Assembly (NCBI GenBank): GCA_964187785.1
Contig: OZ076409.1
Span: 60,514,001-60,578,000 of the forward strand
Source of the DNA: Amphiscolops sp. MND2022
Lineage: Eukaryota
Reading direction: 5' to 3'
DNA: 64,000 nucleotides
Shown here: piece by piece, positions 24,242-41,907 of the stretch
Position numbering within the stretch: position 1 is the stretch's first letter
Layout of the letters: every line of letters starts with the position of its first letter
Notes under the pieces: generated by a model
The model's database searches: none
What the model saw: the letters and a program-made list of their open reading frames with translations, nothing else
Told to the model about the DNA's origin: nothing
Translations under genes and position numbers: made by a program

Positions 24242-24262
24242 AGTAGTAGTAGTAGTAATAGT
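24242..24262 (+). repeat. (AGT)n tract 1, 7 units with one AAT variant
   Basis: Read directly from the sequence; left boundary of the element array. Confidence 0.95.
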
Positions 24263-25081
24263 ATTCTCCGCACTGGCGCTTTATAGAACTATTCTCGGCG
24301 CCAGCGATTGTAAAACGCCAGTCAGCAATCATTCTAACCTAAGAAAACGCCAGCTGCCCTTATTTGAATTTCCGCAACTGGTTTCAGCTAAATCTGGCCT
24401 AAGGATCTTTGAAATGTTTTTTTTTTCAGCTTCGCTGGAAAGGTTTTTAGGTTTTTTCACCTTGTTTGCTGTGGTGGCGTTTTATTACCTATTGGCGTTT
24501 TCCACCCCTGTTTCAAAATTTCGAATAGCATGCCCAGGAAAACCGGAATCCTAAAACGGGTGTAACATCATCATCTGGCATGGTGGAAATCATTTTCCGG
24601 AATAACAACAAACACTCTTGGGTATAAGTCTCCCTTCTAAAAGCACTGAAAACACATTTTAAAAAGTTTCCAGTATTTCAGGTCATATTGGATTTCGAAA
24701 AAAAGTATAAGGTGTGAACGATAGTTTCACTGACATACGGGTTGAAAACTTGCGGGGTTATTCTAAGAAAATTGTTGTTGTTGTGGCTGTGACATTTGCA
24801 ACAATCAACATCGATGTTATTTCCTTTTCTACAGATTTGGTAGTTTCTTTTCTTGCTGTCGTTTTAAGGTACCCTTCATTTTTGTTGAAGTAAAACTTTG
24901 GAATTATTGTATATGAAGCTAATCCGGTGCCACTACTCATCGACAGTTTCGATGTGCCTTCATTTTCACACTTCTTCATTTTCATTTCTTTATTGGTCAC
25001 CGATATTTAGATGTCATGATGTTAATATTTTTTTTTGAATTTCAGATTTGTTTTGAAGTCAATCGAGATTACGAGATCTGA

Positions 25082-28000
25082 TGGAGAGAGAATAGAGGCA
25101 GTCGTCTCTATAACAGATGGAGAAACGAGCCAAAAAACTTTTTATCCAGTGACCCCCCAGATTTTCTGGTGAAATCTTCCCTAAGCCCCCACGCTGGCAA
25201 TGGGTTATTCGTAACAAGAGCATTTCAAACAAGAGAGTTTTTAGTGAACTATAGAGGAGATCGTGTGACTGAAGAAGCGTCCACTCTCGTTGATAATGTC
25301 TATGTTTTCGACACTGGACCACCGGAACACGTTCTCATAGATGCTGCTAATTGCAATGATTGCATAGCAAGGTTCATCAACGACTCTGATTCACTTTATA
25401 AAGCGAACTGTCGTCCAGTGAAGTTTCGGGACTCTAACGGCACAGTCAAGATTGCATTTTATTCTACTCGTGAACTGAAAGCACAAGAGGAATTGAGGTA
25501 CGATTATGGCACTGCGGAAGCACCTTGGAAACATACTGTGCCTGAAGAATGTTTCAAAGGGATTGCTGAAAATGATACTTCAGTTGATTTGGATCTCATC
25601 GAATTAAACACTGAGTTTAACTGGACAAATTGTGACATGGAATTTGGAGCCGAAGTTGAAGTAGCCTGTAATAGTGCTGAACCAACTTCCACTTCTCAGA
25701 TTGATACTGTTGCTGAACAAGGTGAAGTTGATGCAGTTTGTGGAAAACTGAATCAATGTAAAAGGAAAGAAAATCCTCATGAACATCTTCAACATTTTTG
25801 TCAACGAACTCTCGAAAATTTGAAAAAAAGTGCAGTTAACGAATTTAGTGAACAAATTACAATTGAAGAGATTCCCCAACAACAACAGGCAATTTCCGAC
25901 AAAGTAATAAACGAAACAGATGACTGTCTTGAAAAATTAATTACAAATTCAAATTACAGTCTTGAGAAGCCAGGTGGAGTTGTCAGCCATGAGCAGTCAA
26001 ATGGAGATATTGTCAGTCGTAAAACGCCAGGTGGAGAAGTTGTCAGTTGCGAGAAGCCCGGTGGAGAAGTTTTCAGTTGTAAAAACCCAGGTGAAGAAGT
26101 TGTTAGTCGCGAGAAGCCAGGTGAAGAAGTTGTATGTCGTGAGAAGCCAGGTGGGGAAGATTTCAGTAATGAGAAGCCAAATGGAGAAGTTGTCAGTCGT
26201 GAGAAGCCAGGTGGAGAACTGAGTCGTGAGAAGCCAGGTGTAGAAGTTGTCTTCCGTGAGAAGTCAGATGAAGTGTACAGTGGTGAAGAGACAGTCCTGA
26301 GAAGCACCAGTGGGGATGTTGAAAGAGGGTTTGATACTTGTGATGAACTTCCTGCAAGAAATGACGATGACAATCATGAATCTGAAGATGAACCTTACAT
26401 TTCATCAAAGGAATCGGAAAGTGCAGACAAAATTAGCTCCAAAAGAAACCGACAACGGCGTGACAAATTAGAAGAATGTATTTTGTGCTTTAAGACAGTA
26501 AACAAAATGAGGGATCATTTGTCAAACACTCATAAACTCCACAACAATTTAATTCTTATAAGGTTTCTGAGTAGCTATTACTCGACTCGAAAAACTAAGA
26601 AATGTTTTCAGTGTGATATCTGTCGGAAGAGAATGTCTTTCAAACATGGGCACCCAAAGAAACACGAATTACACGTCATTAAAAAAAGAGACAATATTGA
26701 ACATTTTCCTGCCGAATTTCGTGAAGCTGTGCTACAGTTTCGAGAACAGTTGTCAACACCCAACGAAGTGCTCGTACGGAAGTTTGTGGACCATCAAGAA
26801 GGCCTCGCTGACGATGGTGACTGTGTCACTGTCCAAAGATTCTCGTCCAGCTTGCAGAAATTCTTGTGCTTGGTCAAACATGAAACTAATGATTTCAAAG
26901 AGACGACAATGTTAGCGCCGTTTGCCAGACAGTATAAAAGTTCACGTGGTCTCTCAAAGGCCAGTACAATTATATATCTGTCGGCCCTGAAGAAGTTCTT
27001 TACGTTTCTTGAGTTACATTGCCAACCAGAATTTGAGTGTTAACCGAATACCTTGGAATAAAGTTCTCGACGAAACGAGGGTACCTTATCAAAAAGGATC
27101 ACGGAGTGAGAAGAGGAGGGTGATGAAGGAGAAGTTTTTGAAAGTTCCTACATTCAAACAAACGAGAGTCCTGTATAAGAAGGTAGTAGCTGAGCTGGAT
27201 AAAGATTTGAAAACGCATGATCTCAAATACAAAGCTCTTATGGTTTTCAATTTTTTTATTCTTTCTTTGAGGGTGAATTGTAGATCAGGGCCTCTTTTGG
27301 ATCTAACGTGGGAAGATGTTGACGAGATAAAACGTGTGGGTCATATTGAGACCAGTCGGCATAAAACAGGCCATATATATGACGTTGCAATCACAATCCA
27401 AGATGACCAGCTGCCTTGGTTGAACCGCATGAGAAAACAGTATACTGATGAGTTCCAAGTTGCCTCGGAGAAAGTCTTCCCTTCATCGACGAATTTAAGA
27501 GAACACAGTGTGGCGCGATTTATGCGCGAAGTTTTCCTGAAGTTTTTCGGCGACGAGATCTCAACAGTACTTGAGAAGGATTTCCACTCAAATTCTCTAA
27601 GAAAAATGTGGGACACCTACGTACACAAAAATCGCGATAAGATTCCGTTAGATCTGCGAGAGATGCATCTACGCCAAACGGGACACAGTGAATATACATC
27701 GCAAAATAACTACATTGTTCCAGGACTAAACCCATCCCTTCAATTATACCAAGATGTCTTGAAGGACAACAGTTCACTCTTTGACAATGACTCAAACGAA
27801 ACAAACACCAGTAACCAAGCCGAAAAAGGAAGCCAACCGAGTTTTCAGCTTTCTGGAAATTCATCTCTTAACGAACACACTCCCAAGCCTTCTCATAGCT
27901 CTTCTATTAAGGAACACACCCCCAAGCCTTCTCAAAAGTCTAGTAATGAATACACTCCCAATAAGAGAATTGGTACCCGTAAAAAAGACAAAATGGCGAA

Positions 28001-39611: not shown

Positions 39612-41736
39612 ATACCCCGTCCGGGCGCTGACGACTCCTGACGGTTTCCCTCAGCGCCCGATGGCCACCTCGCCTCGGAGTCCACAGCGCCCGATTTTCT
39701 GCCCAGGCTAGCTGAGACCGCCTATCGATACCGCAGTTATTGGGGATGCTACAGCATTCCAATACAAGCTCCCAAAAAAATCAGGCCCTTTCAGTTCGGT
39801 CTGAGACAAAAATGCGAGCAAATGTAGTAAGAGTTTCAAAAACCACTACGTGCGGGCGCACACGGCGTTGCGATAACTACGTGCGGGCGGTGACGGAGTT
39901 TTTTAGTTCTGATGTTTTTTAAATAATTTTAACGCTTTTAAATCACTTTTGTATTGATGTTTTGTTGTTTTGGTAAGTTCTAAGGGGTGTCAGACAGTAA
40001 TAATGAGTTTTTGACTATTTTTAGATTGAAAATGGAAGACCTTGGCTTTGACCCTGAATTTGATGAAATCATCAACTCGTTGTCCCAAATCGACCCGTTT
40101 CAAAACCCAATATCCACTCAAGAGGTACTGGTTGATTGTCAAAGTGATGTAGCACAACAAACAAACCCGCCAGAGTCCGAAAAAGTTCTGAAAACAGTAG
40201 TTGAGAACGGCCAAAATGTCAAAAGTGTCAGTTTCGAAGCAAATTCGGGTGAATTCATCCATGAAAACGTTCTCCAGGTGGGCTCCTCTGGTGCCAATCT
40301 GGTCCCAGAGGGCTCCACCTACGACGAGAACATCAAAAATCAACACCCGGATGAAAATAGTTCTCCTGAAATTAATATTGATAACGATTTCTACGATGGA
40401 ATGGTCAAAATCATCATTTGCACATCAGCTGTTTTGAAGATGAGGAACCATATAAACACGGTTCATAGATGTATATATTCTCGTATTTGGACCTACCTTA
40501 TTGTCTAGTACCCCAATCTTGGAGAAAAAGATGTCAGGGACTGTCACAATTGTGTTTTCGGCGCTTTAAAGGCAAAATACACCATGGAAGACTCAAAAGG
40601 ACAAAAAGGTTTTAGACAGTGAGTAGCCATCAGGATTAACAAATATAGCAATAAATGCTATTTGTGAAGCATGTACGGCCTCCCCGAAGTCAACGAAGGC
40701 TGTAGAAAGCTATACTGCGTATTTAAATGAATCAAAAAGCTATGTAAATGAGGCATTTTTGGAGGACACCGTTGATGTTGTTTTTTCTCAAAGTTGGAAA
40801 TATTTCTTTGCAAATCTCCTAGATGACTCCAAAAACCCCTGGAACACCCTGGAACTTGCCACAACAACCCTCGGGACTAACTAGAAGCATAATTTGATAG
40901 CTAGCACCATCTTGAGATACCTCGGGCACCTGAAATGTTTCATTTCCCACTTAACGATTTATCATCCAAATTTTTCCGGACCAAAATGGGCTGGATTGAT
41001 GAAATTCACCAGTTTTACCGCACGGAAACCAATGCAGAACCTAAATACATATCCCCTGTGCCAGAAAAACCACAGAAAAGAGTTATGTACGTCTTATAAA
41101 TGATGGTATTCATGAAATCTTTCCCCAGTAGAAGTCTTTCAATTTTAACGCTACTGCAGTTCGCAAAATATGGAACAAGAACATCCGCAGAATTGAGGAT
41201 GGTCAAATTCCGGTTCGCATGCATCAACAACACCTGGCACAAACCGAACACACCGTATAAACCGCTAAAAAACAGTAAAAAAGACCACATTGACGAAAAA
41301 TTGCAATATTCAACGAAATACAACATTTTGCTAGTGGCTGAACAGGATATTGAGGAGGCTGAGCCTACCGAAAATCAAAATACCAATGTGGGTTACCTCA
41401 AGGGTGAACCTGGGGAGCCCACTGATGCATTAGAGACAGAAAAACAACCTCCAGAAGCCGATAAAGAGTCTGATTAAAGCTCAGAAAATGATCGATTTGC
41501 CGAAAATTTGTCTGTGAGTGACGAACGCCTAGAATGACGTCAAACATGTGCTAAACTTGCTTGTCGTCTTGTGTTTTCTCATAATTGAGCTTTTTATTGA
41601 TGATTGGGTACCCCGTAATAGTTTTTTGTACCTCAAATCTGGAGTTTTGACAAATCAGCCCTGAGCGCCCCGCGTCAGTAGAGCCGCTGCCGTCAGCGCC
41701 TTGCGTCAGTAGAAAAAGCCCTAAGCGCCCCTGCTT
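39612..41736 (+). mobile_element. Element E3: non-autonomous, internally deleted relative of E1/E2
   Basis: GGCGCT at 39624-39629 and AGCGCC at 41724-41729; coding remnants CTSAVLKMRNHINTVH (cf. KMRDHLSNTH), CHNC and ASTILRYLGHLKCFISHL; no SET or YR catalytic motifs seen. Confidence 0.7.
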
Positions 41737-41907
41737 AGTAGTAGTAGTAGTAGTAGTAGTAGTAGTAGTAGTAGTAGTAGTAGTAGTAGTAGTAGTAGTA
41801 GTAGTAGTAGTAGTAGTAGTAGTAGTAGTAGTAGTAGTAGTAGTAGTAGTAGTAGTAGTAGTAGTAGTAGTAGTAGTAGTAGTAGTAGTAGTAGTAGTAG
41901 TAGTAGT
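41737..41907 (+). repeat. (AGT)n tract 4, 57 units, right boundary of the array
   Basis: Read directly from the sequence. Confidence 0.97.

Follow-up and report, generated by a model that had tools for sequence, protein, structure and literature searches.

A mixed array of Crypton-like tyrosine recombinase elements, two of them with a SET domain, within AGT microsatellite tracts of the Amphiscolops genome

Cryptons F, S, A and I have been described as elements that possess a tyrosine recombinase (YR) only, lack a reverse transcriptase (RT) and long terminal inverted repeats (TIRs), end in a short terminal direct repeat (PMC3212892), and have a proposed circular intermediate and non-autonomous partners (PMC3212892, PMC9977147). 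Microsatellite-specific insertion has been attributed to CryptonV (Kapitonov and Jurka 2012, Repbase Reports 12:2034, as cited in PMC8869645). Here we describe three units, E1, E2 and E3, that share this set of properties, the circle being a proposal for them too, and that lie in AGT microsatellite tracts of Amphiscolops sp. MND2022, in a window (the whole stretch analysed) of 64,000 nucleotides (contig OZ076409.1, positions 60,514,001 to 60,578,000, forward strand) from a 1.07-Gb assembly of 1929 contigs (GCA_964187785.1). Compared by description, their target-specific microsatellite insertion is a CryptonV-like trait, and the statement in an earlier note on this DNA that some CryptonV families insert into microsatellites has a counterpart in PMC8869645. 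By contrast, described Crypton targets are motifs of 4-6 bp and the extra domains reported for Cryptons are GCR1_C, C48 peptidase, DDE and HTH (helix-turn-helix), whereas the present elements use long microsatellites and carry a SET domain (PMC3212892).

The array reads (AGT)7-E1-(AGT)29-E2-(AGT)340-E3-(AGT)57, the four-tract and three-unit layout that the earlier note had proposed, with the tracts at the positions it gave. Tract 1 (24242..24262) consists of 7 units (5 AGT, AAT, AGT) and is the left remnant of the target microsatellite; tract 2 (29644..29730) has 29 units (27 AGT, AAT, AGT), tract 3 (38592..39611) has 340 perfect units, and tract 4 (41737..41907), the right remnant, has 57. 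All four are on the + strand, with AGT on the coding strand of E1, E2 and E3 alike, in agreement with the co-orientation claimed before. Tracts of at least five units were absent from 200 base shuffles of the window.

E1 (24263..29643, +, 5381 bp) starts with A-T-N10-GGCGCT and terminates with AGCGCC-N10. Its first open reading frame (ORF) part (25082..27043, +) is predicted to encode a KMT5A-like SET domain (~25196-25510), a linker of 30-bp repeats, a C2H2 finger (~26438-26749) and a core-binding domain, and is followed, after a frameshift near 27037, by a second part (26991..28389, +) with the YR catalytic domain and a C-terminal helical domain, itself interrupted by a frameshift near 28250-28280. 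The putative catalytic residues are R at 27282, K at 27363, N-x-x-R at 27591-27602, H, and Y at 27711 (+ strand). E2 (29731..38591, +, 8861 bp), from another subfamily, has the left end A-C-N10-GGCGCT and the right end AACGCC-N10. Its ORF part 1 (32075..34066, +) contains a KMT5A-like SET (~32189-32491), nine 69-bp repeats and a C2H2 finger (~33551-33844), with a frameshift near 33925; part 2 (33877..36248, +) contains the core-binding and YR catalytic domains (~34222-34815), three introns and the C-terminal helical domain. These introns (35029-35223, 35296-35490 and 35671-35846, +) are GT-AG, phase-0 and keep the frame to the stop, and are sequence predictions only. E3 (39612..41736, +, 2125 bp) retains remnants of the finger (~40404-40559), the core-binding domain (40699-40998) and the catalytic domain (41054-41275), scattered across three frames. 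Pfam detected SET in E1 (E 2.6e-9) and E2 (E 5.3e-7), with the YR downstream in each; Phage_integrase was matched by the E1 YR alone (E 4.6e-5, under the curated cut-off), and Phage_int_SAM_1 weakly by both. The SET domain proposed for the units of the array is thus present in E1 and E2 and missing from E3, and the proposed introns are predicted in E2 but neither in E1 nor in the intact relatives. These relatives, on contig C4, each have one uninterrupted ORF, of 1055 or 1384 codons, with the order SET, repeats, C2H2 finger, core-binding domain, YR and helical C-terminal domain. Compared with them, E1 has two frameshifts and E2 one, which are either real or assembly errors. Both E1 and E2 are copies, disrupted by frameshifts, of a YR DNA transposon with intact relatives, and E3 is a SET-less, non-autonomous derivative.

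The model of the recombinase places it in the YR fold. The folded protein had 1055 residues and was confident from the finger to the YR; its SET part was of low confidence and was refolded alone. The top Foldseek matches of the YR were XerA, a staphylococcal integrase, Cre and lambda Int (prob 0.8-1.0, E 0.01-0.3); nudiviral VLF-1 and phage integrases matched as well, at best with E 6.7e-5. Across 25 aligned relatives, the residues R, K, R and Y never vary and the second H hardly does. Two elements of the Crypton description, a YR with a conserved catalytic set and a short target-matching direct repeat (AGT) on both sides, are present. One observation counts the other way: in all relatives N or T takes the place of the first catalytic His (N-x-x-R). 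A PDB sequence search with the YR alignment returned only a Ros zinc finger (E 0.006). Consistent with the reported lack of RT, no RT or DDE transposase ORF was found between the AGT ends in the window or in three elements on C4. RT/RNase H together with inverted terminal repeats or split direct repeats, as in DIRS, Ngaro or VIPER elements, was also not found, the nearby RTs belonging to separate long terminal repeat (LTR) elements outside the array. None of the 25 members matched DUF3504 (CryptonA) or GCR1_C (CryptonF) at E 0.01. DUF3435 (Starship) gave no Pfam match, the units are below 10 kb, and Atlas clusters with DUF3435 appeared only at 0.90-0.91. The elements would work like Cryptons, and we use Crypton/CryptonV as a working label.

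The adjacency and shared orientation of the units, together with the existence of tandem E3 runs (four on contig C3), would also be explained if one element, or a host SET-recombinase gene, had been duplicated locally in tandem and the copies had then diverged. However, the YR tree puts E1 and E2 on separate starred branches and their catalytic domains are 38% identical, while E2 and E3 each have near-identical dispersed copies beside other neighbours, and we regard this origin as extremely unlikely. The earlier note had described units related as proteins but strongly diverged as DNA; accordingly, the YR ORFs of E1 and E2 share 31% identity over 322 aa, and blastn of E1 against E2, or of either against E3, gave no match at E 1e-5. 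Nor are the genes single-copy: E3 is dispersed in many copies, and an E2-family copy on a different chromosome (C13) is bordered by (AGT)142+ and (AGT)45. A second mixed array, (AGT)138-famA-(AGT)14-famB-(AGT)17-famC-(AGT)365+, is located on C4, likewise a chromosome other than that of the window. Together with the filled and empty paralogous sites described below, these copies support the independent insertion of different subfamilies that had been suggested. An E3 copy (L040) and an E2-family copy on C13 (L070) have a sequence in common beyond their AGT tract, and a second shared landing repeat or element end therefore exists.

To follow the elements through the genome, YR matches were collected (at least 147), and 143 were counted after three tandem partial repeats (C6) and one fragment (C11) had been dropped. 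Among the SET matches listed, an E1-type SET is positioned within 5 kb upstream in 66 of the 143, a second, SUV4-20-type SET in 55, both in none and neither in 22; no opposite-strand SET occurs among these matches near the 143 YRs. Each SET type has at least 150 matches, many without a nearby YR match (frames of 1099-1122 codons on C4, C7, C11 and C13 are examples), which makes it probable that the genome holds additional YR lineages. Neighbouring YRs no more than 40 kb apart are co-oriented in 25 of 26 pairs, and at least ten famC copies have identical YR scores and 1384-codon frames.

A left-end pattern, AGTAGTA-N10-KGGCGYT, had 60 genome matches versus 14 for its control. A co-oriented YR follows 3.2-5.4 kb downstream of 27 of the 60 and an opposite one of none (chance expectation 0.03), while an E3-sized unit begins at 21. 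Searching with E3 DNA devoid of AGT gave 23 full-length copies of 95-100% identity, plus partial ones, and AGT borders both ends of all 23; the end patterns match at 23/23 right and 21/23 left ends, the remaining two left ends being AGT by direct reading. All 19 fetched junctions abut AGT; they were mostly picked from pattern matches, the exceptions being four famC right ends and two E3 left ends. For YRs with an E1-type SET, 27 of 66 fit the strict left pattern, and E1, E2 and L038 were read directly as AGT-bounded. AGT targeting is strand- and phase-specific.

The SUV4-20-type lineage is more varied. Four sampled families (L034-L037) adjoin (TTA)n(TTG)n, (TAA)9, (ATGT)n or, in tandem, no microsatellite, and it is possible that SUV4-20-type families partition microsatellite targets. 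Several copies of this kind are located within 1 Mb of the starts of chromosome-scale contigs (C4, C9, C10). Two other SUV4-20-type families end at AGT. One of them, famK (L068, G000:C2:34137903-34146200; L061, L071), has different and longer inverted ends and is also inserted in AGT in the same orientation, 16 of 20 matches to its left end coming after AGT repeats. The expectation that most copies are bounded by AGT was thus realized for E3 and partly for the KMT5A-like lineage, but not for the four sampled SUV4-20-type families.

Direct evidence on the target came from a host repeat that spans 15 kb or more, shows 98-99% identity in a comparison of two copies and has an internal AGT tract (for example G000:C1:293201-309200; L063, L058, L064) and recurs at about 60 other places, many of them on small contigs. 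No ORF longer than 145 codons was seen in the part that was read, and over the 230 bases left of its tract the repeat shares 90% identity with a SUV4-20-type YR family (L059), at the right end of that family. Anchors on the repeat recovered 67 left sites, 58 of them paired. Forty-eight of the 58 are short, all 48 are in phase, and they hold 6-268 units (median ~52). Two empty sites that were fetched are pure AGT, with flanks 99-100% identical on both sides to those of filled copies. With flanks of the same identity, filled sites contain within the tract E3 (37+63 units), an 8.3-kb SUV4-20-type element or a 5.5-kb relative of the latter. Because filled and empty paralogous sites exist, the AGT tract pre-exists and is split by insertion, and the host repeat acts as a mobile landing pad. 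A famC copy on C9 was rejected as a filled site since only ~165 bases are common on its left flank; a SUV4-20-type family has this flank motif at its right end too, and the site was not counted.

One could instead suppose that the AGT tracts are cargo made by the elements, as carried terminal repeats or by growth from a short target. The 19-fold genome excess of (AGT)10 matches (149,735 against 7,709 for the reversed (TGA)10 control), the very long and pure tracts beside elements (340, 365+ and 260 units) and an AAT variant common to some left junctions would fit such an origin. Against it stand the 48 element-free sites, filled paralogues whose totals (51-105 units) fall within the empty-site range, and the use of the same tracts by two lineages with unrelated end sequences, and we consider it very unlikely.

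Several observations nevertheless weigh against AGT targeting by splitting of a pre-existing tract. The right-end pattern is not enriched (43 matches versus 39 for the control). Six of 12 further KMT5A-type copies lack an AGT tract in the 2.3 kb that precede the SET; one of the six kept the end signature and one includes a stretch with 197 N. Of the 58 paired sites, 10 are long and only three hold a family member; of the other long sites, one (C6) is a local duplication and one is ambiguous, so that five of the 10 were read. The empty sites are AGT-only, as had been anticipated, but they are paralogues and not alleles. Finally, the window tracts total ~433 units, above every one of the 48 empty sites, and later expansion or an assembly error is therefore needed. 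No empty paralogue of the window locus was found: neither the 235 bases to the left of tract 1 nor ~35 to the right of tract 4 had a match elsewhere.

The ends of the elements suggest how AGT could be recognized. The end signature noted earlier is present as GGCG(C/T)T at base 13 of each left end in E1-E3, and the right ends have A(A/G)CGCC 16 or 13 bases from the terminus. Seven of seven elements compared have A-pyrimidine-N10-GGCG(C/T/G)T directly after the last AGT and the inverted hexamer 16 (or 13 or 19, in equal phase) bases ahead of the next AGT. Consistent with the claimed lack of TIRs, long ones are absent: E1 has only an imperfect 15-nt arm (24269-24283 / 29625-29639) and the E3 termini have none, while the inverted subterminal arms of famK are longer (28 nt, 89%). 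We infer from YR biochemistry that ends joined in a circle would form a symmetric site around an asymmetric (AGT)k-A-Y core.

We think it very probable that the element ends undergo site-specific recombination with (AGT)n in the manner of Cryptons, and a circular intermediate is, by analogy, likely. In the proposed pathway, the recombinase would bind the inverted subterminal motifs, and the element would be excised as a circle with the junction hexamer-N10-[(AGT)k-A-Y]-N10-inverted hexamer, giving an 8-bp core for k=2. This core could then recombine with any in-phase AGT tract; the orientation would be fixed because the core is asymmetric, and the tract would stay a target because it is split and not destroyed. 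Reuse of one tract by different subfamilies and by the non-autonomous derivative builds mixed head-to-tail arrays, and E3 would be mobilized in trans. That the microsatellite is a reusable attachment site, as the earlier note put it, agrees with units that sit inside AGT tracts in one orientation and phase between intact host flanks. Insertion and excision of an active Chlamydomonas Crypton follow a like logic, with clean excision and yet a rising copy number (PMC9977147). With intact recent copies, defined ends, an abundant simple target and filled and empty paralogues, the family offers the rare case of a eukaryotic site-specific DNA transposon mapped in full, for which the circle model of Crypton transposition becomes directly assayable, and its enzyme is a candidate natural recombinase for placing 2-10 kb into a harmless repeat.

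The units could also be relics or satellites of a larger YR entity, a DIRS-like retrotransposon or an endogenous virus such as the telomere-targeting nimaviruses, and be moved by its machinery. Nimavirus integrases share the C2H2, SAM-like and YR domains, an incomplete catalytic set, insertion into simple repeats and concatemers, but, compared by description, nimaviruses are viral genomes of 280-400 kb with a telomere-repeat target, and the available part of that report does not mention SET (PMC10871703). Nudiviral VLF-1 is the best viral fold match and giant-virus SETs are among the Atlas clusters nearest to the SET (0.96). Against this stand the size and content of the complete units, which measure 5.4-9.7 kb, contain a single long ORF and lack RT and capsid ORFs, and the uniform famC copies noted above, which make such an origin most unlikely. 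Viral contigs gave no pattern match to famB, and metagenome contigs searched with P0043 gave no confirmed relative. Relatives with the present YR type do exist in sequence datasets, one with a SUV4-20-type SET, and Atlas clusters include chordates, arthropods and cnidarians.

Host KMT5A/SETD8 and SUV4-20 enzymes both act on lysine 20 of histone H4 (H4K20). The second SET type has its best PDB matches in SUV420H1 (E 1.8e-13; next family 0.0055, one query), a SUV420H-type SET with Cys post-SET is present in this second lineage, and in the YR tree the lineage has a starred branch of its own, separate from that of the E1 type (midpoint root only). For the E1-type SET, phmmer best matched KMT5A; its model best matched SETD8 (Z 15.3, root-mean-square deviation 2.1, 122 aligned), with COMPASS tied at Z 15.0. 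Its profile matched a clearly KMT5A-like fish SET family (99.7%, E 6e-27); the fish homologue prefers KMT5A (E 1e-25) to MLL (3e-14). Two results count against a KMT5A assignment: with the E1-type SET profile, MLL1 (E 2e-12) comes ahead of KMT5A (E 2e-9), and where a cofactor motif N-H is usual, this SET has N-D. Taken together, the SETs of E1 and E2 are indirectly assigned as KMT5A/SETD8-like, and the view that both SET types are H4K20 enzymes was weakened after MLL1 ranked first.

Whatever its mark, the E1-type SET is as strongly conserved as the YR (41-69% and 35-60%). In codon comparisons, synonymous differences are saturated (pS 0.70-0.88) while non-synonymous ones are lower (pN 0.19-0.43) in 15 of 15 pairs, a pattern that argues for purifying selection keeping the fused SET. 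The C4 neighbours famB (L032) and famC (L033) are 69% identical in SET and only 38% in YR; because famB thus has a famC-like SET and yet a distant YR, module exchange between these co-targeted families is likely from the alignments.

SETD8's mark (H4K20me1) has been linked to pre-replication-complex assembly and 53BP1 recruitment (PMC5034662) and to the accessibility of incoming herpesvirus DNA (PMC12724366), and licensing of a circle or anti-silencing is therefore plausible. We suggest, tentatively and by analogy, that the SET may write H4K20 methylation locally on the element, the circle or the target for accessibility or replication licensing. A broader scheme, in which the YR superfamily took each H4K20 methyltransferase type in turn, a SETD8-like one in one lineage and a SUV4-20-like one in the sister lineage, the tethered enzyme marks the circle or locus for licensing and openness, and families partition AGT, TAA/TTA and ATGT, appears rather unlikely at present. 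If true, H4K20 self-marking would explain copy gain by an element that excises and integrates conservatively, an open point for Cryptons; two SET types akin to both H4K20 writers do point to a transposon that could write its own chromatin mark. SETMAR/Metnase likewise joins SET to a transposition enzyme, but it is described as one host gene that has been domesticated and includes a DDE transposase, whereas the SET here resides in multicopy, recently amplified YR elements.

Proteins of like order occur in teleosts and echinoderms (XP_063755780.1, Eleginops; XP_063959792.1, Lytechinus): SET of the N-D type, repeats, C2H2, a YR-like domain and a C-terminal helical domain. These proteins may belong to CryptonV. 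There were 434 teleost matches, with YR-like motifs in 76-79 of the best 120, and the catalytic R, K, R, H and Y of the fish proteins are in register with the present YR, although the profile match between the two YRs is not significant (E 0.09-0.2). They are annotated as uncharacterised or KMT5A/set-1-like, and many are probably transposon proteins, which suggests that many "KMT5A-like" or "uncharacterised SET" genes in fish and invertebrate annotations are of this kind. Microsatellite-targeting YR transposons (CryptonV, at second hand) and the SET-finger-YR order in fish and sea urchin are thus already known; two alternative SET types, mixed arrays and the end anatomy were without a description in the literature searched. 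No description of SET-bearing YR transposons was found there either, with Repbase Reports and subscription journals, where they may be recorded, outside the search.

The array sits between LTR retrotransposons unrelated to E1-E3, all on the - strand (window 570-6558, 10310-17871, 43255-45504 and 58015-59070). These pieces contain a Gypsy-like integrase and protease, RT and RNase H, and one further integrase, and a BEL/Pao element with a 1941-codon open frame is among them. Tandem repeats with periods of 146, 28, 439 and 229 bp occupy 30405-30785, 36311-36556, 56724-57607 and 58992-59431 of the window, respectively, the first two lying within the non-coding ends of E2.

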